From: a virus
Lineage: Duplodnaviria > Caudoviricetes
Reading direction: 5' to 3' (one strand)
Length of the DNA: 64,000 bases
IMG/VR virus record: IMGVR_UViG_3300028832_000095
Location: 96,001-160,000 of that record
Part shown: positions 372 through 62,415 of the stretch, one piece after another
How the letters are laid out: each line of letters starts with the position of its first letter
Position numbering within the stretch: the first letter of the stretch is position 1
Translations under genes and position numbers: made by a program
The notes under the pieces: generated by a model
The model's input: only the letters and a program-made list of their open reading frames with translations
Databases searched by the model: none
What the model was told of the DNA's origin: nothing

Positions 372-776
372 ATGAAACTTATTATTGAAGATATTGGTAA
401 TTATAGGTTTGCCATTATTATTAAAAATGATTCTGGCAGAAGTTATAATTTTGTGGAATGGGCAGATTCTTTACAAGATGGTAAATCAACCGCTAGGGAA
501 TACTATGATAGTGATTTTTATCATCGTACTCATTCAGAGTATTGGCTTTATGATACAAAGAAACATAGAGCTTATTTACCACAAGGGTTTAGTTCTACAG
601 ATCAGCAATTTGATAATTCCTTACCTATTTATAAAGAGGATGATGAGGGTAGATATGAACTTCTTGTTGATTATGTAGATGATAAGATATATGGAATGAA
701 AGAGTCCGTTCAGCCTGATGGTAACTCGGTCAGAAAGGCATGGGCAGAAAAACTAGGAGTAGACCAAAACTATTGA
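372..776 (+). CDS. Hypothetical protein with N-terminal IIE signal (candidate capsid cargo); probably N-terminal half of a frameshifted gene
   Basis: RBS AAGGGAG; MKLIIED start, internal MKES. Confidence 0.6.
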   Translation: MKLIIEDIGNYRFAIIIKNDSGRSYNFVEWADSLQDGKSTAREYYDSDFYHRTHSEYWLYDTKKHRAYLPQGFSSTDQQFDNSLPIYKEDDEGRYELLVDYVDDKIYGMKESVQPDGNSVRKAWAEKLGVDQNY

Positions 777-1231
777 GATCTAGTTGCAAAGGAAATTCGT
801 GTACTATTACAATCAGTGCATTGAATATGTTTAGTGTATACGAAAAAGGTCTTAGTAATAAAGATATTGAAGATGCTGGAAATGATGTTATCAAAGAAAT
901 GTCATTAAATGGAAAATGTTATATCACAGATCTTGGAAATTATAGTGGAGCTAAATTAAAGTTCGAGACAGTTACAAATGAATGCATGGTTAAAGAATCT
1001 GCTATGCTGATTGGTTGGAATAAAGTAGAAGATATTTGTAATAACTTCAGATTCACAGGAGACTGGTTCAAAGATTTACATAAACTTTGGGATCGACTTG
1101 ATAAATATTATTATAATGAAGTTGAAGTTTATAATGAAAATATCATTAAAAGAATCAAGGATAAGGTAACAGAAGTTATCATTAGCAAGTATCCAGAGTT
1201 TGAAGAAGAAATTAAAGAAGAAATTTGGTAA
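740..1231 (+). CDS. Hypothetical protein, probable -1-frame continuation of 372..776
   Basis: No well-spaced RBS; overlaps upstream ORF end; contains VKES motif. Confidence 0.45.
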   Translation: MGRKTRSRPKLLRSSCKGNSCTITISALNMFSVYEKGLSNKDIEDAGNDVIKEMSLNGKCYITDLGNYSGAKLKFETVTNECMVKESAMLIGWNKVEDICNNFRFTGDWFKDLHKLWDRLDKYYYNEVEVYNENIIKRIKDKVTEVIISKYPEFEEEIKEEIW

Positions 1232-1291
1232 TAAATTAAGAATCATACAAAGTATAAAATACTTAATAAACTTAAATCTAGTATAATATAC

Positions 1292-1336
1292 AAAAATGTC
1301 ACAAGGAATTCTACATTCTTTGTGACATTTTTTATT
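1292..1336 (+). terminator. Intrinsic terminator
   Basis: aaaaatgtcacaa...ttgtgacattttt stem plus T tract. Confidence 0.75.
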
Positions 1337-1356
1337 GAAAAACTTTTAGAAAACAC

Positions 1357-1392
1357 TTGACTTTTTCTCTAAAATATGTTATACTATATTTG
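1357..1392 (+). promoter_or_regulatory. Sigma-A-type early promoter (repeat family)
   Basis: TTGACT-17-TATACT, TG extended -10, ATATTT tail. Confidence 0.85.
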
Positions 1393-1435
1393 TAAGGTAA
1401 AGGAAGCACAAACAACAAATAAGGAGGAAAAGAAA

Positions 1436-1774
1436 ATGACTACATCCCAGGAAAGAAAAGTTGATTATCTCCGTAGAGAAGCTGAGAAGATGGCTTCCGA
1501 GTATCATAACAACGGTGAGATTAAGAAGTTTGAAGTTGTAGATCACGGTTCCTTTGTTTCTGTTTACATTGAGGTTGGGGACACAAAAGACGAAGGAACA
1601 CTGGCAGCTTTTATTTGCCGAGAGAAAGCACACATCTTTATAGGCAAGCGTGGAGCAATGGAATTTCCGGTATGGGATGCTAAAAGATGTGACCAAAGAT
1701 ACAAGAAGTTCAGATCTTTGTGGTGTGCTTACTACGATCAGGAAAATAATGTGGTTAAAGGTTCTTATAAATAA
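1436..1774 (+). CDS. Hypothetical early protein
   Basis: AAGGAGG RBS before ATG 1436; the track start 1376 lies inside the promoter. Confidence 0.7.
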   Translation: MTTSQERKVDYLRREAEKMASEYHNNGEIKKFEVVDHGSFVSVYIEVGDTKDEGTLAAFICREKAHIFIGKRGAMEFPVWDAKRCDQRYKKFRSLWCAYYDQENNVVKGSYK

Positions 1775-2530: not shown

Positions 2531-2540
2531 CAAATCAATA

Positions 2541-4988: not shown

Positions 4989-5520
4989 ATATGTAATAAC
5001 AAATGGAGAAGATTATGTAGCAAATTCAACAGGAACATCTTTCAAAGTAAATAAAGAGGATGCCTATATGTGGTCAACAGAATCAGCAGCTAATAATGTT
5101 CTAATCAATCAGATGGGGCATAAGAAGTCTTATATGGTAAAAGAGATCACTGTTTATAAATCAGATATTGCTCCTGATATAACTATGGATGTAGAAGTCA
5201 TCCAGAACTTTCTTGATATAGTTATGGATAGTGCAGAACATGAAGAAGAACTAAGATCACAACTTAGAAAAACAGATAGGTCTATATCTGATATTTTACA
5301 TTATATAGAAATGACTGATCTTAATGCCCGTGATGGGTATATGGTTTATAAGCAACTAAAAGCCTATCAGAGATCGCGGAGAGAGATTAAGAATAGGTTG
5401 AAGATTGTAGAAAGTGTGAACTCACTTTCAATTGATCCACAAGTCTTGAAGTCTGTAATTTCATTTTTCAAGGAAAGAAGTTATAGACCGAGAGAACTTG
5501 ATTTTGATGATATGTGGTAA
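4966..5520 (+). CDS. Hypothetical coiled-coil phage protein
   Basis: GGAGG RBS; SDILHYIE...DGY...RREIKN...YRPR. Confidence 0.65.
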   Translation: MKPLKQSKYVITNGEDYVANSTGTSFKVNKEDAYMWSTESAANNVLINQMGHKKSYMVKEITVYKSDIAPDITMDVEVIQNFLDIVMDSAEHEEELRSQLRKTDRSISDILHYIEMTDLNARDGYMVYKQLKAYQRSRREIKNRLKIVESVNSLSIDPQVLKSVISFFKERSYRPRELDFDDMW

Positions 5521-5535: not shown

Positions 5536-6771
5536 ATGAGAGCAACTATTATTTCAGAATCTACGGAAGATCAAAAGTTTAGCTTTCTTCCAAATCTAAC
5601 AAAGGCAAAAACATTTTCCGGAAAGATGGCAGCAATCTGTTATCTTAAAGATAAATACTTTAATACAAATGCTTCTGATAATGCTAAATCATATGACAGA
5701 TTTATGCGTGTAGCAGAAACAGGACATCACAGTATTGCGGATCATTATTTTGTAACGGTTCTTTTTGAGAACATTCCAAAAATGACAGCAATGATTCTAA
5801 ATAGTCTTGGGTTCTATAATACCTCCGAGAAAAGCGGAAGATATACAGTTATGAACGCCGATGAAGAAGATATGATTAAATATCATAAAAATTATGAACT
5901 GTATAACAAATGGATTCCAATCCTAACAGAACTTATTAAAAAAGAATATCCCACAATGGATGATAAACTGGTAGAAAAACTATCACTTGAAAATGCACGT
6001 TATATGCTTAGTGTATTCTCACATAGCACAACGATGTCATATACAACCTCTTTCCGGATGTGGAGTTATATTAAGTGTTATTGCGATAGGCATATTATGA
6101 CACATGAATCTAATTATGATAATATGACGCAGTTTGAAAAAGACTTGTTTGACTGTATTAAGGAACTAAGGAATTGTATTGAGGAAATGTATTTATTCTC
6201 AAATGATCTTATTGAGAATAAAGGAAGAGGTTTCTATTTCCTCGCAAAACAAACATTCTTTAATACAGACAATATGAGAGAGTGCATTGGTGATGCCTAT
6301 TTGATTAAATACGGATCATCCTTTGCCGACCTTGCACAACAGCAGAGACATAGAAACATCAAATATTATATGAACTATGACGGAAAGTACCATCAATTCT
6401 ATGTTCCAAAAATTATTAAGGACACGGAGTATGAATCACAGTGGGTAGAAGATTTAATGTCTATTGCAGAAACAACACCGATTGCAACAAAAGTTCAGGT
6501 GGTGGAGACAGGTTTTATTGGTGAGTTTTTACTGAAATGTGATGAAAGACTTTGTGGAAGAGTGCAGCTTGAAACAATGAATACTATCACACAAAATCTA
6601 ATTAGATTTGCAAGAAACCGTGGTAATTCACCGTTCATGAAAGATATGTTATCTAAATATATTGATATTGACAACTACAATGAACAAACAGTTAAGACTA
6701 AGTGTTGTAGAGTAAACTGCAAAGAACCTTGTTTCTTTGGCGCAAAGAACGGGATCACAAGAAAGATTTGA
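5536..6771 (+). CDS. thyX: ThyX-like FAD-dependent thymidylate synthase (long two-domain form)
   Basis: GHHSIADH, SEKSGRY, ENARYML, QQQRHR motifs; near dcd. Confidence 0.7.
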   Translation: MRATIISESTEDQKFSFLPNLTKAKTFSGKMAAICYLKDKYFNTNASDNAKSYDRFMRVAETGHHSIADHYFVTVLFENIPKMTAMILNSLGFYNTSEKSGRYTVMNADEEDMIKYHKNYELYNKWIPILTELIKKEYPTMDDKLVEKLSLENARYMLSVFSHSTTMSYTTSFRMWSYIKCYCDRHIMTHESNYDNMTQFEKDLFDCIKELRNCIEEMYLFSNDLIENKGRGFYFLAKQTFFNTDNMRECIGDAYLIKYGSSFADLAQQQRHRNIKYYMNYDGKYHQFYVPKIIKDTEYESQWVEDLMSIAETTPIATKVQVVETGFIGEFLLKCDERLCGRVQLETMNTITQNLIRFARNRGNSPFMKDMLSKYIDIDNYNEQTVKTKCCRVNCKEPCFFGAKNGITRKI

Positions 6772-6789
6772 TATTTAGTGATATTATAC

Positions 6790-6825
6790 AAAAACTCCTA
6801 CATCTATTTGTAGGAGTTTTATTTT
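6790..6825 (+). terminator. Intrinsic terminator
   Basis: aaaactcctaca/tgtaggagtttt stem. Confidence 0.8.
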
Positions 6826-6833
6826 ATATCCTA

Positions 6834-6869
6834 TTGACTTTTTCTTATAAATGTGTTATAATATATTTG
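6834..6869 (+). promoter_or_regulatory. Sigma-A-type early promoter (repeat family)
   Basis: TTGACT-17-TATAAT-ATATTT. Confidence 0.85.
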
Positions 6870-6908
6870 TAAACTAGATAAATAACTATCAGATCGGAGG
6901 TATTTGTT

Positions 6909-7298
6909 ATGACGTTTACTGATGCTCAGATCAATGAATTTAAGGAAAAGGTGTCCGAATTGTTTATGGATAAGTTCTATGAATTTATTGATGATGTAAA
7001 AGAAACTCGCGGAGATGGAAAAGACTTTGCATGGAAGTATGGTTTCACTATTCGCCCTAAATTCATCGAGAAGTGGACAAAGAATACAATGACTAACGCA
7101 AATAAGTTCGCATCTCAGGTTTTTAATGGAGGAACTATTGATTTCTGGATGAATAACGGTCTTGAAAAGGAAATGATCTGGAAACTGGTGTCAGAAGGAT
7201 TCCTTTCTGAATCTACTGCATGGAAAAGTGGCTCTAAGACATTCTACTTTCTCAAGCAAGATATTATAAAGGAAATTTTTAAGCAGTATAGACGATAA
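6909..7298 (+). CDS. Hypothetical protein
   Basis: GGAGGT RBS, first gene after promoter. Confidence 0.7.
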   Translation: MTFTDAQINEFKEKVSELFMDKFYEFIDDVKETRGDGKDFAWKYGFTIRPKFIEKWTKNTMTNANKFASQVFNGGTIDFWMNNGLEKEMIWKLVSEGFLSESTAWKSGSKTFYFLKQDIIKEIFKQYRR

Positions 7299-7459
7299 TT
7301 AAGAAGTATTATTTGATTAAAGGAGGATTACTGAAATGGAGTTTATTATTAGTGTTATGAGAGAGGAACTTGACAGACTTCCGGGCGGTATTGAGGATCA
7401 AGCTAGGGAGTTTCTTAGCAGAGTTTGCAAAACTGATGAAAGTGCGGAGGATAGTGAAA

Positions 7460-7795
7460 ATGATTACAATTAAGAAATCTGATTTGTCCGATCTGTTTAA
7501 CTATATTAGGTGGACTATTGATAATCCATCTCCATGTATGAAATGTTATAGTTATGGAACACCCGAATGCTGTGGATGTATTCAGGATAGTGACTATCGA
7601 GAAAAGAAACATTCTCTTCCCGGATCATCCGTATATAATAATATGAACTATCAGAAACTTGCAGATGCTTATGTAAGAAAATATATAGCAGAAAAAGCAA
7701 AAGAAGAAGCAATCAAGAATTATAATAAAGAAGCGTCAGTGTATGAATCAGTGCTACAAGAATATGATGTAGTTTGTGAAGAAACCACTAAATAA
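7460..7795 (+). CDS. Hypothetical Cys-rich protein
   Basis: GGAGG RBS before ATG 7460; PCMKC...CCGC. Confidence 0.6.
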   Translation: MITIKKSDLSDLFNYIRWTIDNPSPCMKCYSYGTPECCGCIQDSDYREKKHSLPGSSVYNNMNYQKLADAYVRKYIAEKAKEEAIKNYNKEASVYESVLQEYDVVCEETTK

Positions 7796-8262
7796 AGGAT
7801 TTTGCGTATGAATCAAAATGAATTATATGATGAAATACCTCACGAACTTAAAGAGTGTGGAAGAGTTCAGATTAAAAATATTTTTCGTGATGCTGGATAT
7901 GTTGTATTCCGTGATCATGTTGTTGATCATACTGGATATTATATATTCAAAGAAGTATTTACTAAAAATGACATTATAAACCCAATTCGTTATAAATATC
8001 TAGGTTGGTATAAACTACTTAAACAGGTCATGTATGAAATTAAAAATGATTACATGGATTCATGTAGGCATTTTGAAGTAAATGTGACTAGCGTTCTGGA
8101 GGTATATGATAATGAAGTGTCTTGAATTTCCACCAATGTTGTTTGATGAGTGTGAATTCGATTTCCCAGATGACATGAGAAGACTTCTGAATCTTCTTGA
8201 AATGGATTACTATTGGGATATTAAAGATTATGTATACAGACCTTGGGATAATGATAAGGAGT

Positions 8263-8976
8263 ATGAATAATATGTATTCAAATGTAATGGCGAATATTAA
8301 AAATAATAATAAGTTCCCTGTTTGCTGTAATCAGTCTAAGTTAAATTATAATAAATACAAACAACTCTGTGAACAGAGTCAAGAAAAAGCAGAGTTGTGT
8401 GACAAAATCAGAAATGATTTTGGTGAGGAATACACAAGTGACGCTAAGCGTGAATGGAGAAAAATCGCTAAAGACCGTGACACTGTATGCACTTGTCTTA
8501 AACTAAATAAAGTTATGGATTCTTTGATGCAAGAAATCATAGATGAATATTCTTTGGAATTTATTGGTAATGGCAGTAAGGAATGTGACGGATCGCAAGG
8601 TTTAGTTCACTTGTGGAATCATGATAATGCTTCATGTTTCAAAGCAAAAGCGAAAGATGCATATATTCTGATGGAGCACAGCGAGAATATATTCAACGGA
8701 TATTACTTCATTGATTTCGATATCCATTATGTATTTTCAAATTCAGTTGAATGTGCATTGTTGGAATGGGATTTGAGAAAGCACGATGACTATTTTAACT
8801 TTTCTGATGAACCGAATCGTATTGGATTTGTCGATCTTCATTATGATGTATATGAGAAAGCAGAATATTTTTATATGCAAAAAAAGCTAAAGGAAAAGCT
8901 TGAACAGTTCTTTGAACAACATAGGTTAGATATCATTCTTTGGGAAGAACTCGAAAATGATGAATCCGGAAAATAA
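8263..8976 (+). CDS. Hypothetical protein
   Basis: AAGGAG RBS before ATG 8263. Confidence 0.6.
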   Translation: MNNMYSNVMANIKNNNKFPVCCNQSKLNYNKYKQLCEQSQEKAELCDKIRNDFGEEYTSDAKREWRKIAKDRDTVCTCLKLNKVMDSLMQEIIDEYSLEFIGNGSKECDGSQGLVHLWNHDNASCFKAKAKDAYILMEHSENIFNGYYFIDFDIHYVFSNSVECALLEWDLRKHDDYFNFSDEPNRIGFVDLHYDVYEKAEYFYMQKKLKEKLEQFFEQHRLDIILWEELENDESGK

Positions 8977-10325: not shown

Positions 10326-11257
10326 CAGACATTGGAATGAAGTAAGAGAATTGGGTGAGAAGATCGGATATGGGAAACTAATGACAGTTGCTTCTATCCT
10401 ATGGGCATCAAAACTTATTGATGCCGGACTACCAGATAACGGAGCATTTTATCCAACAGGTTTATTTAATATGAAGGATTCGACAACAACAAAAGATCAA
10501 GTCGAATATCGTAAAGCATGGCTTGAATTTTATAGGAAGAATATAGTATACAAAGAATAAGGAGGATATAATAATGGATCTTAATCTCAAACTCAAAGAT
10601 CATACCCTTATAAAAATTACATCTGAACTTGACACAGAAAGAGTTTATGATTACTACGGTGATTATGATCGTCCAACTCAGGACATTAGATTTATTTTCG
10701 ATGACGGAATGATAGTTGATTTTTTGTCAATTAGAGATGACAGTGCTTCCTTTACATATCTTGCAAGTTTCTTCTACCAGAAAGATTTTTCAGAATACAC
10801 AAAAGATCAATTTATTTCTGAATTTTCGGAATATGTTAGTGTGAAACCATCAGTTATGAGAATAAATTGGCGTGATCAATATAATTCTAACTGCTCAGTT
10901 ATGAAGTCTGACCATTATGCAGTTTTCAGAGATATTGAATCTCCGAAAGAATCAACTGGATATGCTAACTATGACGGTAGAGAATTTTAAGGAGGACTAA
11001 CACAATGAAAACATACTATCCAATGGCTACTTATGATGGACAGACAGATAATTTTCATACGCTTACTACATACGATAGTCAATTTACTGTTAATGAGTGT
11101 TTGATTGCAATTCGTAATTGGATTTCTGCCGGGTTCAAAATTGATAAATGTTGGATTCAAGAATATGATACAGATACGAATGTTCCGAGAAATATCTCTG
11201 TTCACATTGTAGGCAGAGAACCTAAAGTTATTTATAGTAGATAAAGGGGGGTTAATT

Positions 11258-12028
11258 ATGAAAAAAGAATGGGTTGAGAAGAAAGAACAGGAACGTAAAG
11301 TAAGAATTAAAGAACTTACAAAACAAATCATGGATGCACTAACTTCTTTGGAAGATTTTACGGATAAAGAAAGAGATATGTTTGTTGAAAGATTTTACGA
11401 GATGAAAAATATTGGCATGAGTGATGCTCATATGTATATGCCGCATATTAAAGGAAAGTTCAAATACAGAGATGACCTATATAATAAGATAATGGATATT
11501 CTCAAAGAACTTCCGTTTGATCAACTTATCATGACCGAGCGTTATAGTTATGAAAATTATCTTGATTCTGAACATAAACATTTTACCGGAGATATTATTA
11601 TCACAGATCCTTGTTATATTGCAAAAGAAAATGAATGGCCCGATTATCTTGATGATGCGTATGATAATGAGGATCATCCTTTAAGGACTTTCATTGAACG
11701 TGGAACCATTTATGGTGACTGGTCTTGTACTACATTTGATACTGTTAATAGTTGGAAACCCATTGGAAACTTTTGTGCGGATGCTGGATGGGTCGGCGTG
11801 TTTGATCTTTCAGAAGTTTTAGCATATAACCCGAATTTTAACTATCATATAGAAAGACCTTGGACAACAACACTAATTAAGAATTTTGACGGTACTGTTT
11901 GGTTTGAAGTTGATGAGCACTACGATGAAGACTACGGATATGAATACTCTGTTCATGTTATTGGTAAAGGGGTTAATACAGAGACCGGAGAGCCTATTGA
12001 GTTCAGGACAACTCAGACAGGACTTTGA
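11258..12028 (+). CDS. Hypothetical phage protein
   Basis: ITDPCY, TIYGDWSC, FCADAG motifs; RBS present. Confidence 0.65.
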   Translation: MKKEWVEKKEQERKVRIKELTKQIMDALTSLEDFTDKERDMFVERFYEMKNIGMSDAHMYMPHIKGKFKYRDDLYNKIMDILKELPFDQLIMTERYSYENYLDSEHKHFTGDIIITDPCYIAKENEWPDYLDDAYDNEDHPLRTFIERGTIYGDWSCTTFDTVNSWKPIGNFCADAGWVGVFDLSEVLAYNPNFNYHIERPWTTTLIKNFDGTVWFEVDEHYDEDYGYEYSVHVIGKGVNTETGEPIEFRTTQTGL

Positions 12029-12381
12029 AAGGATTTTACATTATGAAAACTGTTTTGGTTTACAGTCTTAACGAAATTAGAGATATTCTTTTGAAATATC
12101 TTCCGCCTGATTCAGAGTCGTACATTGAAGACGCTCTGTTTGAGTGGGCTAGATATGAACGATTTATTCATATTAACGTAGATAAACTCGAAAACATTTC
12201 CGTTGAGTATGAGGAAGGTGGGTTACGCGCATCAAATGATGGTGCTGTGCCTAAGAAAATTCAGAAATGGATTGACATTATCAATGAATTGATCCTAATT
12301 ATTGAGAATATGGAACTTCCGGAAGAGTTCATTATTGACTATGAATCAGACATTTCTATTTATAAATAAAGGTGAATTACT

Positions 12382-12945
12382 ATGGTTGGATATAAAATTG
12401 CAGTTGGTATTGACTCCGTAGACGGTCCGTTTCTTGTAGTAGTTAAACTAGAGACATTACCAGAATCTACTATTGTTACACCAAATAATAAAATTCAGTT
12501 AGCAGCAGAATGTTCTATTCTCTATTACGTTGAAGAAATATTAAATGTATGTAATTTTTATTATATACCAGATAAAAAAGAAATTCAACAATATAGAACA
12601 GATGCTGCAATCGTAACGGGAATTGCACCTATTAAATTAGATTATAAACCTAATAATTGGAATAATAAGGCGTATTCTATTCACGACATTTCAAATAGAC
12701 TTGAATTGCCAGCAGCATATTCAGACAGTTCTGCTTTTACATATATGAATTGTAATAAAGTTTATTCCAATCTTGATTTAAGACCCGAAAATACTTGTGG
12801 GTATGGAATACATTTCTTTGAAAGTTTAGAGGATGCTATTTATTATTTTGCATATGATTATGAGTCTTATATAGTAAATAATTTTCGTCAGATAAAAGGC
12901 GCTTGGAGAAGAGAATCTAAATTATTAAAGGAGTTAGTAAAATGA
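12382..12945 (+). CDS. DUF5758-like protein, tandem paralog 1
   Basis: GYKIA...VKLE...RTD...CGYGIHFF. Confidence 0.55.
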   Translation: MVGYKIAVGIDSVDGPFLVVVKLETLPESTIVTPNNKIQLAAECSILYYVEEILNVCNFYYIPDKKEIQQYRTDAAIVTGIAPIKLDYKPNNWNNKAYSIHDISNRLELPAAYSDSSAFTYMNCNKVYSNLDLRPENTCGYGIHFFESLEDAIYYFAYDYESYIVNNFRQIKGAWRRESKLLKELVK

Positions 12946-14388: not shown

Positions 14389-14814
14389 ATGTTATTAAAA
14401 GAAGATAAACAGTTATACAGAGGTATATTCTGGATTCCGGATATTGATAATGTGAAATCATCTAATCTATATTTTACAATTCCTTGTGATGTTGATGGAT
14501 ATATAAACGATACTGAATTTCAGATTTCCGATATTGTATCTTCTACTGGATCAGATAATTATAACCATAAAAAACTGTGGAAATCTTTGGGAAATAAATA
14601 TACAAATGGAAAGGACTTTTCTTATTATCCTAGAGGTAGAGTTGAAATTAGCAATGGAATTGCAAAAGTATTTCATTCTCCACATATTCCACAAGATGAT
14701 CTTAAAAGATTTGTTATTGATAAATTTAATCTAACTCCGTCAAACGGAATCAAGAAGATTAAAATGATTGCTGATGGAAGTGACCATTATAAATGTTATT
14801 TAGATGAGGAGTGA
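14389..14814 (+). CDS. Hypothetical protein, paralog of 61975..62415; LKE N-terminal signal
   Basis: GIFW, HKKLW, YYPRGRV, HYKC shared with 61975..62415. Confidence 0.7.
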   Translation: MLLKEDKQLYRGIFWIPDIDNVKSSNLYFTIPCDVDGYINDTEFQISDIVSSTGSDNYNHKKLWKSLGNKYTNGKDFSYYPRGRVEISNGIAKVFHSPHIPQDDLKRFVIDKFNLTPSNGIKKIKMIADGSDHYKCYLDEE

Positions 14815-18981: not shown

Positions 18982-19060
18982 AATATTTCCATCAATTTTT
19001 GTGAAAGTAGTAGAATCTAAAAATCTTGATTTTTATTTCACAAAAAGAGATGGAAATATT
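18982..19060 (+). other. Long stem-loop in nrdD leader
   Basis: aatatttccatc..tttttgtgaaa pairs with tttcacaaaaa..gatggaaatatt. Confidence 0.7.
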
Positions 19061-19138
19061 CTTATGTGACCTACTATAACAAATACAACTCCATTTGGAG
19101 GATGGGGAAATATAGAATTAAGAGAGGATTGATCCATT

Positions 19139-22719: not shown

Positions 22720-22754
22720 TTGACATTTTTATGTTTTTGTGTTATACTATATTA
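22720..22754 (+). promoter_or_regulatory. Sigma-A-type promoter (repeat family)
   Basis: TTGACA-17-TATACT-ATATT. Confidence 0.8.
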
Positions 22755-22884: not shown

Positions 22885-23466
22885 ATGGTAAAGAAATTAA
22901 GATTGGACGAATCAAATCAGAAACCTGTTGTAAATGAGATTTTGTCCGACAACCTGGAATTATACCTCCAAGATTTTGCACAGGAATACGGTGGTATTGA
23001 TTATAACGATATTTCAGATCTTAGTAAATGTTGGGATAAACTTGAGAATGCTACGAAGTCCAGAATCAGAAAGTTTGTTTCGGAGATCAAAAAAGCCTGT
23101 AAAGAAACAGGAATGGATGCTTACGAACTTTCCCAGGAATATCCGGAAGATAAAGAAAATTGTGAAAACCTTGTAAAGCATATCAAAAATGCTATTAAGG
23201 GATGTAAGAAAGAATCTGTAAACGGAAAGTTAAAAGAATATGTCACAGTTAGTACAAATGTTAAGGAAGAAATAAACACTACCTTAAGTAGACTTCAAGA
23301 TACTCTTAAAGGCCTGTACTTTATGAAAGACGAATTTTATAAGGACGAATATGTAGCAAGACTTGTAGATAATCTAGACACAATAAATGATTGTATATCT
23401 AGAATTCAGTATGACGAATCAGATGCTTGGCAACATGACAATAATGGAAAAGAAATAAATTGGTAA
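22885..23466 (+). CDS. Candidate capsid-cargo protein (MVKKLRLDE/S)
   Basis: N-terminal LxE signal, internal KKES...KLKE linker, structured leader. Confidence 0.6.
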   Translation: MVKKLRLDESNQKPVVNEILSDNLELYLQDFAQEYGGIDYNDISDLSKCWDKLENATKSRIRKFVSEIKKACKETGMDAYELSQEYPEDKENCENLVKHIKNAIKGCKKESVNGKLKEYVTVSTNVKEEINTTLSRLQDTLKGLYFMKDEFYKDEYVARLVDNLDTINDCISRIQYDESDAWQHDNNGKEINW

Positions 23467-23602
23467 GAAACGGTCTTAACATTAGAAATTTAATTTGTAA
23501 GAAATACAAAAAAAAAACAAATACCTACAATAAATAGTGGTACAAGAAGAGAAGTTGTTATTAGTACCACATAAAAATAATTTTAGAAAGGAATTATGCG
23601 TT

Positions 23603-24283
23603 ATGGTTAAGAAATTAAGACTAAGTGAAGCTAATACTCAAAGAATTGACCAGGTAATGACTAAAAAAACTATTCAAAACAAACTCGATGAGATTCGTGA
23701 TGATGTTTTTCGTCGAGGAACATACAGAATGGATGGAGTAGACCATAAAATTAAAAGTGTAAGATGTACCATCGAGGATGTGTGGGATGTTCCTACTAAG
23801 CCTGGTATTTGGGATATACTGGGTTATGTTGATATTAGATGGGACTACGATGAAGATTCAGATACAGTTGGAACACAAGATAATTTTAGTTTTTACTATG
23901 ATCCGGAAAAAGATGTTATTATAGAGAAAACAGACGAGTCTAAATTGAGAAAAAGATATGGGCATAGATTAAAAGAATCCGAACGTATGTTAAAAGAAGG
24001 CAACCAGGAATGGTTTGATAAACAACTAACTACCGCGAAAAGATATCTGACAGACATTATAGATGCTGCGGAGAACGCTAGAGATCAATTATCCCAGTAT
24101 GTTACAGATGTTGAAGACGAGGTAGGAATTTCTGACGACCCAGAAAGACTGTTAGCTTTGGCTGGAAACCTAATAGCTAAAGCAAATAGAAAACTTGGGC
24201 AAGCAACAGAATTAGTTAATTCGTCTGACGTTTATTTTGATTTGTATTACTATAAACATGGTGGAACAGACGATGATATCTGA
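23603..24283 (+). CDS. Candidate capsid-cargo protein (MVKKLRLSE/A)
   Basis: GAAAGGA RBS before ATG 23603; same N-terminus as 22885; DESKLRKRYGHRLKES linker. Confidence 0.6.
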   Translation: MVKKLRLSEANTQRIDQVMTKKTIQNKLDEIRDDVFRRGTYRMDGVDHKIKSVRCTIEDVWDVPTKPGIWDILGYVDIRWDYDEDSDTVGTQDNFSFYYDPEKDVIIEKTDESKLRKRYGHRLKESERMLKEGNQEWFDKQLTTAKRYLTDIIDAAENARDQLSQYVTDVEDEVGISDDPERLLALAGNLIAKANRKLGQATELVNSSDVYFDLYYYKHGGTDDDI

Positions 24284-24349: not shown

Positions 24350-24385
24350 TTGACTTTTTCTATAAAATGTGTTATACTATATTTG
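24350..24385 (+). promoter_or_regulatory. Sigma-A-type early promoter (repeat family)
   Basis: TTGACT-17-TATACT-ATATTT. Confidence 0.85.
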
Positions 24386-26945: not shown

Positions 26946-27076
26946 GAAATATTCAGTTTAGGTTATAATTTTAATCAGTATTAAACACAAAAAAACCCCA
27001 AGACTTTACATTAAGTAGTGAACAGCAATTATGTTCACTACTTAATTTTTTGTAATATGAAAGGAATTGATTATAT

Positions 27077-27655
27077 ATGATAAGAAGATTGAATGAGAAT
27101 AATGCCCGTGAAGAAATGATAAAAGATGATATTGAATACATAACAAAACAGGGTGGAGATATTTATGAGGTAGCCGATTATCTTGAAAATCTTGGATTTG
27201 AAGAAGGTGGAAGCACCGCACTTAAAGATAACCAAACAGGTAAAACAGAAATAACAACATTTTACAAAGATAGCGGTAGTAATATGTCTGTTGGTGTTAC
27301 ACATGAACCTTTATATAAAGGAGGAATGGTTCTAGGTACTCGCTTTACATATGGTGGAGGAACTAGAAATAAACTTGAATCTGTAAGAAGAAAACGTATT
27401 GTAAAAGAATCAGCAAAAACAGAAAAATTTGAAAAAATACTTGATATGCTTAGTGGATTAGGTTATGAGGGTAATGTAAATATTGTTGAGGCAGATCTAT
27501 CGAAAGGTAAAACAGTAGGAACTGTTAAAATTTTCAGATCTTCATATAGAATAGATTCTGATACATATGATGAAGACGATATTCTAAATGCCACCTGTTT
27601 AGGTCTTTCTCAAAAGAATGGCGGGGCTATTGATAGATTTTATATTTCTATCTAA
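27077..27655 (+). CDS. Candidate capsid-cargo protein (MIRRLNE/N)
   Basis: LNE signal; LESVRRKRIVKES linker; hairpin leader. Confidence 0.6.
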   Translation: MIRRLNENNAREEMIKDDIEYITKQGGDIYEVADYLENLGFEEGGSTALKDNQTGKTEITTFYKDSGSNMSVGVTHEPLYKGGMVLGTRFTYGGGTRNKLESVRRKRIVKESAKTEKFEKILDMLSGLGYEGNVNIVEADLSKGKTVGTVKIFRSSYRIDSDTYDEDDILNATCLGLSQKNGGAIDRFYISI

Positions 27656-27773: not shown

Positions 27774-28316
27774 ATGATTAAGAGATTGAATGAAATTACG
27801 GACGGAAAAACTTTTCTTGAAAAATCTATAGAACTCGCAAGGTGGTTATACGGTCATACTGCAAATTATGAAATGTCATCTGAGAGTAGACTGGATTTAC
27901 AGATGGAGCTTTCTAAACTTATTGCAATGATTGAAGGAGCAAATAATTATTATTTAGATGTAAAGAAAGAATCTAAATCAAGAACTAGAAAAAGAAGTAT
28001 TAAAGAAGGAATTGAACAAGTAGATGGCTATGCTGTTCAAATACATGATATGGGTAAGGGTTATATTCATCTTCTTCTTTTTAATGACGAATCGACAGCA
28101 GAAGAAGTATTAGAGTCACTTGAATATTTAGAATCAGCAGAAGATATTGATGAAGAAATGTTTTATGCCGAAGTTGATTATAATGTTGATATTGCCGATG
28201 ATGTTGTAAATGAAATTGATTGGAGAAGAGAAGTTGATAATAACGATGTATGGACTGCCTCTGACGATACAAAATACAAAATTATTGGCAGTGTTGATCT
28301 TTGGTTGTATTGGTAA
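27774..28316 (+). CDS. Candidate capsid-cargo protein (MIKRLNE/I)
   Basis: LNE signal; KESKSRTRKRSIKEG linker; hairpin leader. Confidence 0.6.
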   Translation: MIKRLNEITDGKTFLEKSIELARWLYGHTANYEMSSESRLDLQMELSKLIAMIEGANNYYLDVKKESKSRTRKRSIKEGIEQVDGYAVQIHDMGKGYIHLLLFNDESTAEEVLESLEYLESAEDIDEEMFYAEVDYNVDIADDVVNEIDWRREVDNNDVWTASDDTKYKIIGSVDLWLYW

Positions 28317-28348: not shown

Positions 28349-28386
28349 AAAAACTTCCTAATTTATGTTAGGAAGTTTTTATTTTT
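28349..28386 (+). terminator. Intrinsic terminator
   Basis: aaaaacttcctaa/ttaggaagttttt stem. Confidence 0.8.
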
Positions 28387-28403: not shown

Positions 28404-28438
28404 TTGACTTTTTAGATTGTTTGTGTTATACTATATTT
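28404..28438 (+). promoter_or_regulatory. Sigma-A-type early promoter (repeat family)
   Basis: TTGACT-17-TATACT-ATATTT. Confidence 0.85.
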
Positions 28439-29604: not shown

Positions 29605-30117
29605 ATGATACCGTTAATTAAAGAAGATAGTTTTATGGAAATGGCGAAACTGATTCCAGATTATGCCGATGAATTGCTTTGTGGAGACTTTGGAGATTTT
29701 ATATATTTTTCTCCAAAACTACATCCGGCAGGTCCAAGAGTAAAGTTCTATGGTGGAACCAAAGAAACATCGACAACAAGAAAAGCACCTACACTTGCTT
29801 TTACAAATACAGGTGAAACAACTCTTGAATTAGCTAATTGGATGAACAAGAAGAATTGTCCAAATGCATTTGATTCTGAATATGTTGAAAAAGTACATAA
29901 CTTTGTAAACAGACTTCTTCCGATTCTACTTCTTGTTTGGTATGGGAAATTAGACGAAGCCCGCGCATTGAAGTATTTTGAAGGGGCTATTACATTAACA
30001 AAATTATTGTCGTATCTTAGGGAGATTCCTGAAAATCATCTTAAATATCTAAGAACTTGTGAGACATTGGATCAGATACAGGAATATTGTTTGAAGAATA
30101 ACCTATATAAATCATAA
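29605..30117 (+). CDS. Hypothetical protein with IKE/xxFME-MA signal (candidate cargo)
   Basis: MIPLIKEDSFMEMAK; HPAGPRVKF. Confidence 0.55.
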   Translation: MIPLIKEDSFMEMAKLIPDYADELLCGDFGDFIYFSPKLHPAGPRVKFYGGTKETSTTRKAPTLAFTNTGETTLELANWMNKKNCPNAFDSEYVEKVHNFVNRLLPILLLVWYGKLDEARALKYFEGAITLTKLLSYLREIPENHLKYLRTCETLDQIQEYCLKNNLYKS

Positions 30118-34560: not shown

Positions 34561-34726
34561 GCAATTCACTTGACTTTTTGAATGTAGTGTGTAAGTAACA
34601 GTTTTTGTTAAATATAAAAATTATAATAGTTATTTACATTATTTATAAAAATTATTCAATAAATAGTAGATAAATATAAATTGGAATAACTATATAAATA
34701 ACAACAAGATTTGGAGGTTGTTATTT

Positions 34727-36654: not shown

Positions 36655-36675
36655 AATTTTATGGAGGTGGTTGAT

Positions 36676-39605: not shown

Positions 39606-39980
39606 ATGAAATTGTTTATTAAAGAAGGACGTTACGAAGATGATATGGCTGTTGCAAGACATATGTCAAAGTGGCTTGAACCAGATCCAGTAGATGATCC
39701 TGAAATGAGATACACCAGTGCAAAAATCACAGTGAGTTGTCTTGATACGGATGAGGATTATGAAACTGAGTTTGATTTCGATGTTTATAACTCTAAGAAG
39801 TTACCTAACGAAGATTTTGAAGAATATGTAAACAAGAATGCTTCACTTCTCGCACAGCAAGAATGTGAACAGGAAGGTTCTCTGGAGTTTATCGGAGTAA
39901 CAGATATTCAGTTTGAAGAAGAACCTTATTATGAAGATAAGTACGAGAACGATGATTTTTACGATCCATACGAATATTGA
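39606..39980 (+). CDS. Acidic candidate capsid-cargo protein (MKLFIKE/G)
   Basis: IKE signal; RBS sequestered in a hairpin. Confidence 0.55.
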   Translation: MKLFIKEGRYEDDMAVARHMSKWLEPDPVDDPEMRYTSAKITVSCLDTDEDYETEFDFDVYNSKKLPNEDFEEYVNKNASLLAQQECEQEGSLEFIGVTDIQFEEEPYYEDKYENDDFYDPYEY

Positions 39981-44524: not shown

Positions 44525-45319
44525 ATGGTATTATACTATGAGAACATAATTACAGATTTACGCAGAAACAATATTAAGGTGACACAGAAGGTATTTGACT
44601 ATTTGAATGAGTATGTAGATTTACAGAATTCAACAATAGAAAAAATGGAGCCGGAGACATATAGAGATTTGAAAGACAAGAATGTTCTTGTTGTTGACGA
44701 TTCAAATGTTATTGCTGTATATGGGCAAAATAAGTTTATGTATAATCCAAATAAGATAAAGGCTTCTGCTATTCCTGAGTATGATGTTTATGAGGTTATT
44801 CAGGGCGGTGTGAATGTTCAAAATAGGAGAGAACAAAGAAGAGATTACTTAAAAGGATTGTCAAGTACAAAAGATTCTAAATTCAGTAATGTTCCAAGAT
44901 CATCTAATTATATTTGGGATAAAGACTGGAATCCAGAAGTCAATAAGCGTTATTACACAAAGTTATTACAACAGAATCATCTTGGTAAATATGCACAACA
45001 GTTAAATGATGCCTATGATGTTGTTAAAGAACTAATAGATCAACGTAGAGAAAGATTGACTGGTAAGAGGTCTGAGTATGATAGAATCATAACTGATATA
45101 TCTAGGCAAATCAGTCGTATTGAAGATGAAATGGTAGCTGCCGAAAGAGATTTTAGTTTTGATCCAGATAAACTTAAAAAGGAAATTTCAAAACTACCAA
45201 GAATGATTAGCAATGCACAGTTCTTTATTGATACAGAGAATAAGGAATTTGCCATTGCTGCAAGATATAATGGAACAGGTAGACGTAAACCTATTCCATA
45301 TACTAAGATCGAGAAGTGA
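44525..45319 (+). CDS. Hypothetical helical protein with hairpin leader (possible cargo)
   Basis: MVLYYE/N start; 16-bp stem upstream of RBS. Confidence 0.55.
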   Translation: MVLYYENIITDLRRNNIKVTQKVFDYLNEYVDLQNSTIEKMEPETYRDLKDKNVLVVDDSNVIAVYGQNKFMYNPNKIKASAIPEYDVYEVIQGGVNVQNRREQRRDYLKGLSSTKDSKFSNVPRSSNYIWDKDWNPEVNKRYYTKLLQQNHLGKYAQQLNDAYDVVKELIDQRRERLTGKRSEYDRIITDISRQISRIEDEMVAAERDFSFDPDKLKKEISKLPRMISNAQFFIDTENKEFAIAARYNGTGRRKPIPYTKIEK

Positions 45320-45870: not shown

Positions 45871-46440
45871 ATGATAACCCTGATGAATGAAGATGTATTA
45901 TTTGAAAAACTAACTGGAAAACAATTCTTCCAATCACTTCTTGAATATCTAACAAAAGATACGATGATTAAATACGCCGATGATTATATTCCTAATTTTG
46001 ATAAATCAAAGAAACAGAAATATGCAAAAGAGTATCCGATCAAAGATATCAAAGATGATATCGCTTCTTTTATAGATGACTGGTTAAGCGAAATAAAGAC
46101 CGAGTGTGACGTTTACTCTATGAAAAATAATCGTAAGTCTGATTCCTATGGATTCTCAAATTATATAACACTATCCTTTAATCGTCCTGCTGATAGAAGA
46201 CTGTATCAGTTCTACAAGGATAACGATGAACTATATAACAATGTGAAATTCCGTTTCTCGGAACACGAATCCAGAAATGATGATTCTGATATTGAGGATT
46301 GGGTAAACTTCACTGGTAAAACATTTAACCAAGCAGCAGAAGAAATGAAGTATAAGATTCAAAACTATGTCGTAGACCTTAGATCAAAAGAAAAGCAATA
46401 TTTGAAGAAACTGGATAAGAAGAATAAGAAAAGATGGTGA
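45871..46440 (+). CDS. Hypothetical protein with LMNE/xxLFE signal (candidate cargo)
   Basis: MITLMNEDVLFEKL; KFRFSEH motif. Confidence 0.55.
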   Translation: MITLMNEDVLFEKLTGKQFFQSLLEYLTKDTMIKYADDYIPNFDKSKKQKYAKEYPIKDIKDDIASFIDDWLSEIKTECDVYSMKNNRKSDSYGFSNYITLSFNRPADRRLYQFYKDNDELYNNVKFRFSEHESRNDDSDIEDWVNFTGKTFNQAAEEMKYKIQNYVVDLRSKEKQYLKKLDKKNKKRW

Positions 46441-46446
46441 TTATAT

Positions 46447-46722
46447 ATGATTATTCTTGAGGATGTTGGGGTTAAAGACAACCATATTAAAAAAATATAT
46501 GATATAATCAAACAAAATTTCGATAATAAAAACTATAAGTTCGAGGAAAAAATAGAAGATTATGTTATCTGGTGTGATAACGATAAAGAACGTGCTGTAT
46601 TCATTCAGGCAAAAGATGGTTCATGCTATGGAACTGTCTGTAAGAATGATATTGATACTGGTTCGGAAGCTGATATTTTAGATTATATAAAAGATCAGCT
46701 TAACGATACAAAAGACGATTAA
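46447..46722 (+). CDS. Small hypothetical protein (MIILE/D)
   Basis: ILE signal at N-terminus. Confidence 0.5.
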   Translation: MIILEDVGVKDNHIKKIYDIIKQNFDNKNYKFEEKIEDYVIWCDNDKERAVFIQAKDGSCYGTVCKNDIDTGSEADILDYIKDQLNDTKDD

Positions 46723-49244: not shown

Positions 49245-50058
49245 ATGATACTGAACGATGGTATATCAAAAAATTTTGAAGGAAAATACGATTTTTGATT
49301 ATACACAGGATTTAGATACAGATATTTTACATCTATCAACAGATGAGAGTGGTGTTAAAACAGCTAACGGTCTTACATATTTCTACGCATACCAATTCAA
49401 TCCGAAAGCGGATTATAACGAAGTAAAAACATTTAGAAAATTATTCAACTATAATTATAGAGATTCACATTATTTTTATAATGACGATGTTTTTGATTTC
49501 ATTGAGGTTGGAATGCTTCATATGGATCATTTCAAAAAATTAGAATCCTTTGATATTGTGTTCATGACAGATTTTGGAAACGGTACATCTGCAGGAGTTA
49601 TGGCATTGCTAGATAGTATGTTGTTAGAATATACAAATGGATCATTTCTTGATGTAAGACTTGTTAAAAAGACATATGAAAATGTTAAATTTGACAGGGA
49701 TAAAGCTAAACAAGCAATACTAAGTACAAATAAATATTCTAATGAATATCAGGCTGAACGTGCTGTAAGATCTATGGAGGATACATTTAATCAGTTGAAA
49801 ACAAGTGGCGAATTGTTCAAGATGAAAAGATATCTTCCGGCAGCTGGTAGAGTAGGTTTTTACAATTTTCTAAAATTTGATACAGAGGAGCATAAAAGTG
49901 CTTTTATGTCTATGGAAAACGGATCAGAAGCCCTTATATGTGATGATCTAATAACATCAGGTTCTACAATAAAAGAAATAAAAAGATATTTACACTCAAT
50001 AAATCCAAATGTAAATATAACAGTGTTTGTTCTTATAGATCAGATGAGAGAATATTGA
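49245..50058 (+). CDS. Phosphoribosyltransferase-fold protein; start ambiguous (49245 with +1 frameshift or 49258)
   Basis: ALICDDLITSGSTI PRPP-binding loop. Confidence 0.55.
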
Positions 50059-59840: not shown

Positions 59841-59860
59841 AAAAAGGAACTGATGACTTA

Positions 59861-60616
59861 ATGAAGAAAAAAATATTTATTCTTATTATGCAAATAACAA
59901 TTATTATATTGTTATTTGCTGTAACCGAAAAGAAAAACACTATCAAGAATGATTCAACAGCATCAATTGAAACAGTATTTATTGATACCTGTATATACGA
60001 AACTACGGCTTGGGTTTCTACCATATCAACTTATCCGGAAACAACTACCACAACTATACAGGAGACAAGCACAACCTCTGTTCCTGAAACCAATACAACG
60101 ATAACAAATACAGAAGGATCAACTAAAAAGACAACAAATACGACCACAAAAAGATATACTACTACTTCAAAAACTACCACAAAAATAACTACAACAAAAA
60201 CAACCACATCAACTACAAAAACAACTACTACCACAACACAGAAAAAAGAATCTAATAATATGGAGCTAGTTGGAACATTCAAACTAACATACTATATTCC
60301 TACATCAAAACAGAATCCAAATACTCTTGTTGGTGGATCAGGTAGGAAACTAATTGATTGTTCTATGGGTGATGGAACAGTAAAAGGATCTGTTGCTTGT
60401 CGCGCTGTGTACGAAAAATATGGATATAAATATAACGGAAAAAGAACTATGATATATTTGGATGTACCGAATTTCAAATATTTAACCGGATATTATTATG
60501 TAGACGATTGCTGTGGTGGAAAAGCAACTGTTGATATTTACTATAATTCTAAGAATAATTGTCCATTTAAGAATATCGGCGTTATTCGTGGGGCTAAGTG
60601 TTATATTGTTAAATAA
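59861..60616 (+). CDS. Secreted/anchored Thr-rich protein with 3D-like C-terminal domain
   Basis: N-terminal hydrophobic helix, long Thr/Lys linker, LTYY...SVA...YYVDDCCGG...VDIY. Confidence 0.55.
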   Translation: MKKKIFILIMQITIIILLFAVTEKKNTIKNDSTASIETVFIDTCIYETTAWVSTISTYPETTTTTIQETSTTSVPETNTTITNTEGSTKKTTNTTTKRYTTTSKTTTKITTTKTTTSTTKTTTTTTQKKESNNMELVGTFKLTYYIPTSKQNPNTLVGGSGRKLIDCSMGDGTVKGSVACRAVYEKYGYKYNGKRTMIYLDVPNFKYLTGYYYVDDCCGGKATVDIYYNSKNNCPFKNIGVIRGAKCYIVK

Positions 60617-60635
60617 AAAACATATTCCAAAATAC

Positions 60636-60670
60636 TTGACATTTTGGAATAGTTGTGTTATACTATATTT
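60636..60670 (+). promoter_or_regulatory. Sigma-A-type early promoter (repeat family)
   Basis: TTGACA-17-TATACT-ATATTT. Confidence 0.85.
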
Positions 60671-60699
60671 ATAAGTTATTCTGGAAAGGACTATCATAT

Positions 60700-61323
60700 A
60701 TGATTCTAATTCTATGCGGTAAATCCGCAAGTGGTAAAGATACAATCCTAAATGATTTTATTCAAGATGGGTTTGTTCATAAGATTGTATCCTACACAAC
60801 AAGACCTAAAAGAGATGGCGAAGTAAACGGAATTGATTATAATTTTGTTACAGAACGTCAGTTCATTGACATGATGAATGAAGGATTGTTCTTCCAAACA
60901 AGACAATATAATACAAATGTTAATGGACATCTTGATACTTGGTATTATGGATCGAAAAAGGTAGAAATTGATAAAAATATTCATTTTGGTTGTATTGTTG
61001 ATATGGGTGGAGTTAGAGATTATGTGAATACATACGGTAAAGAAAATGTGTTTGTTGTTTATGTTGATGCTCCGGATGAAATACGAAAACAGAGATGTAT
61101 CAAGCGTGGATCTTTTGATGAAACTGAATGGAACAGACGATTAGAGGATGACACAATTAAATTTGATATCAACAATCCAGAAGTATATAATCTAATCAAT
61201 AGGGTTGTTGAAAACACCGGAGATATCCGTGATGCTAAATTTGAAATCTCTTATGATTTTTATAACTACATCATGGATAGATATAAAAATGAAAATCATA
61301 CACGTTTTGGAGGAAACAAATGA
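60700..61323 (+). CDS. gmk: Guanylate kinase
   Basis: GKSASGKDT P-loop, SYTTRPKRDGEVNGIDYNFV, WYYG. Confidence 0.9.
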   Translation: MILILCGKSASGKDTILNDFIQDGFVHKIVSYTTRPKRDGEVNGIDYNFVTERQFIDMMNEGLFFQTRQYNTNVNGHLDTWYYGSKKVEIDKNIHFGCIVDMGGVRDYVNTYGKENVFVVYVDAPDEIRKQRCIKRGSFDETEWNRRLEDDTIKFDINNPEVYNLINRVVENTGDIRDAKFEISYDFYNYIMDRYKNENHTRFGGNK

Positions 61324-61974
61324 AAGTATCAACTAAAAAGAAGATGGGTGAACTCAAAGAATACCTTGAAGAACTTGGTCTGTTTATCTGGCAACTTAAT
61401 CAGAAGGATGATGAGGAACTGAAAGAACTTGCTAAAAAGATGCAACTCTGCTATACTGTATGTATGAAGCAGATCAAACAAATCACCAAGGAGGAATTTG
61501 AATAATGTATCTGGTATCAAAACGACATAAGTTGTTTAATGATCCACCTGAAAATCTTAAAGTATTTCAAACAGAATCCGCAGCATTATCATTTATAAAT
61601 AGCCTTGTATCAGATAGCGATTATGTGTACTGTATGACAGAAATTCGCAGTGGTAATGATTATCATATGCACTATGGATATCGGTATAGAGTATATGTTA
61701 CATGGCATATGATATATTTCTGTGTTGAAAGAGTTGAAGTTCTTGACAGATGTGAGATTAAAAATGATTGTTTATATCTTACAAATGTAAAGAAAGATGA
61801 TTATGAATTCTGTTTTGAGATTGAAACAATGTATGAACTTCATACAGATGAATGGATTGAAAGTCATGGATATTGTAGCAGTACAATTTCAGACGATATA
61901 CTCAGACAGAATAAACTTCCGAGGTTGATTGAAAAGTTATATTCAATTAAATAATTACTTTATGGTGATTAAAT

Positions 61975-62415
61975 ATGATTAAATTATATGTCGAAAGACG
62001 AAAGAGGTTATCAGAAAGTCTTGATGCCCCGTGTGAAGGGATATTTTGGATTATTGATAATGAACTAATCGCATACACAGATCAGGTTGATACATCTGGA
62101 AAATTATCTACCACTCTTGAACATAGGAAGATATGGAATGAGATTAAAGATAAGTACACAGATGATGAAATGCAATTAGTTCCTTATGATTATTATCCTC
62201 GTGGAAGAGTTATGGTGAATCCTATTTATAAAGATGGGAAGTTCGATCACTATAATGCATATATTTATATGGATGAATGTATCAAAACATATGAAAACAT
62301 AACTGATATAATCTATGAGTTTAGGCTTAAAAATAATTGTGATATTAAGTATGTTGGTTCATCTGGTGGTGTTGAATCAGGTCATTATGTATGTCATAAC
62401 TGCAAAGGAGGATGA
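61975..62415 (+). CDS. Hypothetical protein, paralog of 14389..14814; RKRLSE/S signal
   Basis: GIFW, HRKIW, YYPRGRV, HYVC. Confidence 0.7.
   Translation: MIKLYVERRKRLSESLDAPCEGIFWIIDNELIAYTDQVDTSGKLSTTLEHRKIWNEIKDKYTDDEMQLVPYDYYPRGRVMVNPIYKDGKFDHYNAYIYMDECIKTYENITDIIYEFRLKNNCDIKYVGSSGGVESGHYVCHNCKGG

Follow-up and report, generated by a model that had tools for sequence, protein, structure and literature searches.

Unrelated small proteins that share only a short N-terminal leader ending in hydrophobic-x-Glu are known from the T-even phages, namely the internal proteins (IPs) IPI/Ip1, IPII and IPIII, Alt and at least 10 other Ips (PMC9026906, PMC12373910). The T4 head protease gp21 is active solely within assembled proheads, so that any protein bearing its sites must be loaded into the head; injection of the IPs and Alt follows (PMC9026906, PMC12373910). 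A protease related to Peptidase_S77, the gp21 family, also cuts after Glu at a three-residue motif in phiKZ, 201phi2-1 and SPN3US (gp175, gp245); SPN3US prefers Ser at P1', propeptides carry several redundant sites, and many head and ejection proteins are substrates (PMC10052503, PMC9026906). Polyvalent proteins combine several unrelated conflict-type domains in one polypeptide, which is thought to travel with the DNA and to be freed by proteolysis; from element to element, the domains recur in different combinations (Iyer et al. 2017, PMC5512222). Here we describe a system that resembles these in part. It was found in a stretch of 64,000 nucleotides (nt; hereafter the window), bases 96001-160000 of the Caudoviricetes record IMGVR_UViG_3300028832_000095 (201,895 bp, 33% GC, nearly all genes on the + strand). 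In this window, a set of small proteins begins with a basic/hydrophobic leader ending in [LIVMF]-x-Glu, and four of them carry a basic linker of similar design between two modules. The phage is uncultured, and its lineage is of the gut or rumen Firmicutes type, not Tequatrovirus.

The leader motif is far more frequent than composition predicts. Genes were called from open reading frame (ORF) length and a ribosome-binding site only, and the strict motif was defined as a first acidic residue that is Glu, at position 5-14, with L, I, V, M or F at P3. It is present in 54 of 261 genes, against 21.9 ± 4.3 after shuffling of residues 2-15 within each protein (z 7.5), and its rate in internal windows is 8%. 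An earlier, sequence-only reading of the window had proposed this comparison with shuffled composition, and the excess is confirmed. When only K, R, L, I, V, M, F or Y is allowed before P3 (the core motif), 21 matches are found here versus 5.1 ± 2.3 expected, 31 versus 7.0 in G001 and 17 versus 2.4 in G002. These genomes and G003 are uncultured relatives, found via the protease described below (64%, 50% and 39% identity for G001, G002 and G003) and taken whole, and the strict-motif excess recurs in all three (z 7.4, 6.2 and 5.8, respectively). The strict motif is not in excess in Staphylococcus phage K (z -1.2), T4 (z 1.2) or Streptococcus phage GXN1 (z 0.1), and in Listeria phage LIS04 its excess is modest (z 2.9). 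When Asp is required at the Glu position, the four lineage genomes have no excess (z 1.3, -0.9, -1.0 and -1.5), with D and E about equally common in residues 2-15. The N-terminal excess is thus strictly Glu-specific, and the motif is real and specific to this lineage. The linker pattern, E-S followed by a basic stretch and hydrophobic-x-E-[SGAN], occurs 7 times here versus 0.6 expected and 10 times versus 0.7 in G001, with zero occurrences in the four other phages.

Twelve of the 13 N-termini listed by the sequence-only reading were reproduced by translation at their coordinates. The bodies behind them, described there as mostly unrelated, are indeed so by BLASTP, the sole exception being the paralogues at 14389 and 61975. 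Eight of the twelve proteins carry a leader only (lengths in amino acids, aa):

372..776, + strand: 134-aa ORFan with leader MKLIIE-D, a core motif match and a weaker candidate member
14389..14814, + strand: 141-aa paralogue of the 'EGIFW' family with leader MLLKE-D
29605..30117, + strand: 170-aa ORFan with leader MIPLIKE-D, which matches the strict motif only and is a weaker candidate member
39606..39980, + strand: 124-aa very acidic protein (net charge -25) with leader MKLFIKE-G, a candidate member
44525..45319, + strand: 264-aa protein with leader MVLYYE-N
45871..46440, + strand: 189-aa protein with leader MITLMNE-D
46447..46722, + strand: 91-aa protein with leader MIILE-D
61975..62415, + strand: 146-aa 'EGIFW'-family protein with the two-part leader MIKLYVE (nt 61975-61995) and RRKRLSE-S (nt 61996-62016)

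Comparison with related phages revealed that the letters of the leader change while its rule is kept. The G001 orthologue of the 14389 protein (81% identical) begins MKLLVE-D. The orthologues of the 44525 protein begin MILAVE-N (G001) and MISLVNE-N (G002), so that Glu and the following Asn are retained and the preceding residues vary. In G002, the orthologues of the 45871 and 46447 proteins begin MKLIRE-D and MRLFE-S, and other proteins begin MIILE-D and MIILE-E. The leader of the 39606 protein, for which no orthologue was found, resembles those of unrelated G001 proteins that begin MKLFIKE-S and MKLFILE-D. No homologue of the 372 or 29605 protein was found in the related phages. Among about 20 metagenomic homologues of the 61975 protein, the pattern M-hydrophobic...VE-basic-[LIM]-x-E-[SGA] is maintained 4-5 residues ahead of the invariant domain start, and the two most distant homologues are without that Glu. 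Similar leaders are also encoded by different codons, since MVKKLRLDE, MVKKLRLSE, MAVKKLRLRE and MVKKLKE differ in their Leu, Val and Lys codons, and the DNA upstream of the start codon of these genes showed no conservation beyond the ribosome-binding site. The net charge of the carriers is the same as that of the proteome; acidic cargo is therefore not a general rule in this genome.

The EGIFW family has four copies in the genome, at 14389-14814 and 61975-62415 of the window and at 70891-71316 and 198628-199059 of the record. Its members share invariant G-F-W and YPRGRV and, at the C-terminus, an H-Y-x-C-H-x-C motif that probably binds metal. Dozens of metagenomic homologues exist without a Pfam family, and the AlphaFold2 (AF2) model has a predicted local distance difference test score (pLDDT) of 85.

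The remaining four carriers are composed of two modules each, and all four internal linkers claimed by the sequence-only reading are present:

22885..23466, + strand: 193-aa two-module protein with leader MVKKLRLDE-S (nt 22885-22911) and linker ES-VNGKLKE-Y (nt 23212-23238, aa 110-118)
23603..24283, + strand: 226-aa two-module protein with leader MVKKLRLSE-A (nt 23603-23629) and linker ES-KLRKRYGHRLKE-S (nt 23936-23980, aa 112-126)
27077..27655, + strand: 192-aa two-module protein with leader MIRRLNE-N (nt 27077-27097) and linker ES-VRRKRIVKE-S (nt 27377-27412, aa 101-112)
27774..28316, + strand: 180-aa two-module protein with leader MIKRLNE-I (nt 27774-27794) and linker ES-KSRTRKRSIKE-G (nt 27969-28010, aa 66-79)

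The linker of the 22885 protein is the weakest of the four and less basic, and that of the 23603 protein is directly followed by ERMLKE-G (nt 23981-23998). Metagenomic homologues of three linker proteins (22885, 23603 and 27774), in chains of 180-312 aa with 2-3 modules, reveal that the modules are exchanged at these positions. The C-domain of the 27774 protein (VDGYAVQ...WLYW) occurs alone directly behind MVILIKE-S or MIRLIKE-S. It also occurs behind six other N-domains via ES-basic-hydrophobic-x-E-S linkers, and in three-module chains; the Glu that precedes it is invariant in 11 of 11 sequences. The N-domain of the same protein is also joined to two other C-domains. The N-module of the 22885 protein is located first, last or alone among its homologues, and in all eight homologues with a module after it, the boundary reads C-K-x-E-S, a short spacer and hydrophobic-x-E. 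One of its partners is a module that is elsewhere joined to the 27774-type N-domain. For the 23603 protein, one homologue (P0044) has an N-module and linker 93% identical to it joined to a different C-module, and another (P0045) consists of the C-module alone behind MIRRLNE-G. A DNA search of the phage collection with the 22885-24283 region gave no match, and for the 23603 protein no relative was found in viral contigs and no match in G001-G003. Since the same domains stand behind either an N-terminal leader or an internal linker, leader and linker seem to be one device in two positions, and by these sequence comparisons the motif marks module boundaries. In the AF2 model of the 27774 protein (predicted template modelling score 0.54), two confident parts are separated by residues 62-73 with pLDDT below 50, and the linker is thus predicted to be disordered between two folded domains.

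The genome encodes a candidate enzyme for such sites. A head module of T4 type is located at 6.3-15 kb of the record, outside the window. It contains a Portal_T4 protein (Pfam 4.8e-51), a Gp23-type capsid gene split by introns and a 568-aa protein, encoded at 11130-12836 of the record, with Peptidase_S77 at residues 6-167 (Pfam 1.2e-12 and 1.5e-14), which also matches the PHROG head maturation protease (4.4e-40). The sequence-only reading had suggested looking for a gp21-type protease elsewhere in the genome, and this is where it lies, beside the T4-type portal and capsid genes. From its sequence, the 568-aa protein is a protease-scaffold fusion, in which the part beyond Peptidase_S77 is a predicted coiled coil. 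The terminase gene of this module (6318-8750 of the record) carries an intein.

The capsid protein, protease and scaffold themselves carry hydrophobic-x-Glu sites; the same reading had proposed to look for LxE sites in the capsid and core proteins. The protease begins MGKKVLIE-TRMNSLKLNE-S, where VLIE aligns with LLIE of T4 gp21, and T4 gp21 has LIE-9, which matches its own cleavage logo (PMC9026906). Both VLIE-T and LKLNE-S are invariant in four protease orthologues. In six related phages, a conserved VVPNLI block of the capsid protein is preceded, at a distance of about 20 residues, by [LM]-x-E-[AST], which is the position equivalent to the gp23 maturation site LTE-A of T4. The protease-scaffold protein ranks first in [LIVMFA]-x-E-S density both here and in G001 (2.1 per 100 aa, compared with a proteome mean of 0.21), and a conserved 385-aa protein of the structural module ranks third. 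As a positive control, the densest protein of T4 is a 269-aa ORF between gp21 and gp23, presumably gp22 by gene order, the scaffold known to be cut by gp21. In phage K, which has no S77 protease, no head-related protein stands out in this density. In T4, Asp at P1 of the capsid-targeting sequence blocks processing (PMC9026906).

The 385-aa protein (19053-20210 of the record) has a zinc-ribbon (CKCAICG...CPVCGE), a long acidic run, ES-basic-x-ES linkers and the end ...VLSES-VRRRRK; it is probably a core protein of the head that undergoes processing. The ORF at 5026-5445 of the record, which lies directly upstream of the terminase gene, has a conserved C-terminal domain (YSFEDANDLYERGYDV...GMNGALLKMRDTGELMAI) behind a very basic linker and is without the leader-bearing N-domain of its relatives (G001 25430, G002 24480); this could reflect a miscalled start or loss of the N-part. 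In the cultured relative GXN1, four small proteins, at 98803, 132585, 132841 and 134401 of PQ819873.1, begin MRLV[KR]L[NT]E[SD], and three of them directly follow the capsid gene. These three ORFs (80, 116 and 101 aa; 132585-134706 of PQ819873.1) are outside the 40 annotated features of that record, and our literature search found no paper on GXN1. This phage would be a practical cultured system for testing the tag.

The expression signals differ between two of the linker-protein units. The 22885/23603 unit is located behind a strong early-type sigma-70 promoter (22720-22748), as is the gene at 193113 of the record. The 27077/27774 unit lies between terminator-like hairpins (27010-27046 and 28349-28380), has no sigma-70-like promoter, and has an upstream region resembling those of the capsid and protease genes. 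The capsid, protease and scaffold genes have a GAAAGG signature upstream in common, and across the pooled genomes this signature is associated with the motif (odds ratio 3.5, p 4e-5). Genome-wide, about 23 near-identical early-type promoters consist of TTGACA, 17 nt and TGTGTTATACT, then ATATTTACA, and the window copies include those at 22720-22748, 24350-24378 and 28404-28432.

Taken together, we consider it fairly probable that these proteins are T4-style head cargo cut by the phage's own head protease, extended here to small polyproteins. The Peptidase_S77 head-maturation protease would recognise and cut both the internal basic linkers and the leaders of the form M-[basic/hydrophobic]-[LIVMF]-x-Glu. 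By analogy with T4, the leader would bring into the prohead either a single protein or two to three small, unrelated domains in one chain. Cutting by the protease after the Glu residues may then free the domains and short basic peptides, and the products would be internal head proteins like IPI-III and Alt of T4. Later injection into the host and any effector role may follow the same model. The sequence-only reading had proposed a modular cargo system of this kind. It is supported in part, by the gp21-type protease, the shared site rule and the interchange of leader and linker; packaging, cleavage, injection and a role in anti-defence or host takeover are suggested by analogy. PHROG and Pfam searches of all listed proteins gave nothing above the cut-off except a PRTase match discussed below, and Foldseek searches of the EGIFW-family and 27774 models against the PDB gave no match at E <= 0.001. 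Since no cargo domain matched any family or solved fold, the term anti-defence effector is an analogy only.

Several observations weigh against this explanation. The window genes are 80-140 kb away from the head module, and the 22885/23603 unit and the gene at 193113 have the early-type promoters described above. The GAAAGG association is loose and, with the core motif, not significant in this genome alone; a refined signature, TAWAW + 0-8 nt + RAAAGG, failed to separate motif genes in this genome. GXN1 and LIS04 encode the protease, yet their general excess is small or absent. Chance background is expected to account for about 22 of the 54 matches (~40% of loose matches), and proteins that are not cargo also match, including a ligase, TnpB, a ThyX-like protein and the tail sheath. 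In the looser group, P1' is often Asp, unlike the sites of the head proteins. The downstream edges of the linkers end in hydrophobic-x-Glu; the first, upstream x-E-S edge has no consistent hydrophobic P3 and breaks the [LIV]-x-E rule, so that it may follow another rule or stay uncut. In addition, residues 4-9 of the leader are modelled by AF2 as a low-confidence strand (pLDDT ~64) in the EGIFW family, and the leader could thus belong to the fold. A predicted complex between the protease domain (residues 1-230) and the 27774 protein scored 0.00 without controls, and weighs neither way.

The early-type promoters of some carriers and the distance of the window genes from the head module would also fit cutting after Glu in the cytoplasm by another protease, with polyproteins serving as a route to several small early proteins and no capsid loading. 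However, our search found no other site-specific protease candidate (Trypsin_2 and Peptidase_S78 are absent), and the remaining protease is a homologue of the processive degrader ClpP. The same rule is moreover followed by the capsid protein, protease and scaffold, and the tagged genes of GXN1 are located within the head module. We therefore regard cytoplasmic cutting as improbable. The ClpP homologue (window 36661-37323, Pfam 1.8e-29), itself far from the head module, leads to another reading, in which the leader is not cut at all. It would act as an N-degron (Met-basic-hydrophobic) for ClpX and the phage ClpP in timed turnover, or as a binding or localisation tag. The N-motif of ClpX is Met followed by a basic and three hydrophobic residues, and several leaders, e.g. 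MKLIIE, fit it. ClpP is present in G001 and G002, which have a strong excess, and absent from GXN1, LIS04 and phage K, so that its distribution follows how strong the N-terminal excess is no less closely than the S77 lineage does. On the other hand, a degron needs no Glu, yet the excess is strictly Glu-specific, and many leaders (MIILE, MVLYYE, MITLMNE) are without a basic residue. An uncut tag also leaves unexplained why internal linkers stand in for leaders, and the capsid protein and scaffold follow the same rule. We judge it somewhat less probable still than cutting in the cytoplasm.

A reading closer to the favoured one accepts loading and cutting by the head protease but regards the products as disposable core- or scaffold-like fillers or DNA-packing parts, not as injected effectors, with the basic peptides and acidic domains serving assembly or DNA condensation. 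The conserved 385-aa structural-module protein has the same linkers, and cutting at the linkers would yield very basic peptides. It also counts for this reading that gp21 likewise cuts the core proteins gp22, gp67 and gp68 of T4 (PMC9026906). However, the window members are fast-evolving ORFans (a G001 homologue was found for 33% of core-motif genes, compared with 52% of the rest), and their modules shuffle freely. Both properties point to accessory genes more than to assembly parts, and such a filler role is unlikely, though it deserves some weight. Finally, the motif could be an artefact of composition or translation, if gene starts tend by chance to use AT-rich codons such as those for Lys, Ile, Leu, Asn and Glu. 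The genome has a GC content of 33%, and loose [LIVM]-x-E is found in 16% of internal 12-residue windows. This explanation appears very improbable, because phage K (30% GC) and T4 (35% GC) show no excess, shuffles that keep the composition give 22 matches compared with the 54 observed, and the specificity for Glu over Asp, the synonymous codon variation and the internal linkers would all be unexplained.

Head cargo cut by the phage's own protease thus seems the best account, and it resembles the T-even system in that Peptidase_S77 is encoded, the protease, scaffold and capsid follow the same rule, and the carriers are variable accessory genes. The capsid-targeting sequence of T4 is MKTYQEFIAE, and the leaders here are unlike it, being basic/hydrophobic and 5-14 residues long. 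An estimated ~30 carriers per genome compare with 3-10 in T-even phages. Unlike in T-even phages, the domains are chained via basic linkers and shuffled between phages, and the protease is fused to the scaffold. Neither the capsid-targeting sequence of T4 nor the IP/Alt families showed homology to these proteins, and no cargo body had a Pfam or PHROG match, so the system is an analogue and not a homologue of that of T4. In the phiKZ/SPN3US-type phages, in contrast, P3 is Ser, Ala or Gly, most propeptides are 111-254 residues long, and no short shared leader or joining linker has been described.

Polyvalent proteins (PMC5512222) are the nearest concept, yet they are large, contain an embedded peptidase of their own beside 2-15 known enzyme domains, and are therefore distinct from this arrangement. 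The proteins described here have 2-3 small modules of unassigned family, and a defined linker would be cut in trans, presumably by the head protease; no embedded peptidase or other Pfam domain was found in the linker proteins. Our full-text literature searches found no description of tailed-phage polyproteins jointed by a head-protease motif with module exchange. An N-terminal packaging leader on unrelated T-even proteins and S77-type cutting after Glu in T4, phiKZ and SPN3US are thus known already. What appears new, on the sequence comparisons above, is a different leader in a distant lineage, a ~30-gene excess, and small polyproteins jointed at the protease motif with exchanged modules.

The thirteenth N-terminus of the sequence-only reading did not withstand comparison. 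The claimed ILKE-N at 49258 is out of frame, and the G001 orthologue reads MVIKDGISKNFEGKYDFDYT... through in one frame. The window has a run of five T at 49292-49296 where G001 has four, and the true N-terminus of the 49245 gene is thus MILND-G, which is Asp-ended and outside the rule:

49245..50058, + strand: PRTase-like gene, frameshifted relative to its G001 orthologue and not a member of the set

The run of five T may be either a homopolymer error of sequencing or assembly or a real frameshift. A paralogue of this gene is located at 1904-2725 of the record. Elsewhere in the window, 19139-22657 encodes a 1172-aa anaerobic ribonucleotide reductase (NrdD) with an ATP-cone, an intein and a C-terminal glutaredoxin domain. 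At 34718-36605, an ORF for a serine recombinase (Resolvase) precedes one for TnpB/OrfB_IS605 that includes a Cas12f-like TNB domain; the pair looks like an IS607-type element inserted directly upstream of the ClpP gene.

If the favoured explanation is wrong, a Glu-specific leader common to unrelated proteins still needs an explanation. A broader form of it, which we put forward tentatively and with some doubt, is that more than one-tenth of the genes of this phage encode virion-delivered proteins recognisable by a leader of 5-14 residues. One leader would load interchangeable modules, the head protease would separate them, and the excised basic linker peptides may act in the head, e.g. as DNA counter-ions like the mu peptide of adenovirus; evolution would swap modules at the linkers. 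If the favoured explanation is right, the leader/linker rule would allow the proteins that a large uncultured phage brings into its host to be listed from sequence alone. In T4, this set includes the anti-restriction proteins, of which Ip1-3 block GmrSD nucleases (PMC12373910), and dozens of new small domains of unassigned fold would here become candidate counter-defence or takeover factors. Polyproteins matured by the head protease would then exist among tailed phages, and a short packaging tag would become available for phages whose hosts are Gram-positive or rumen bacteria.

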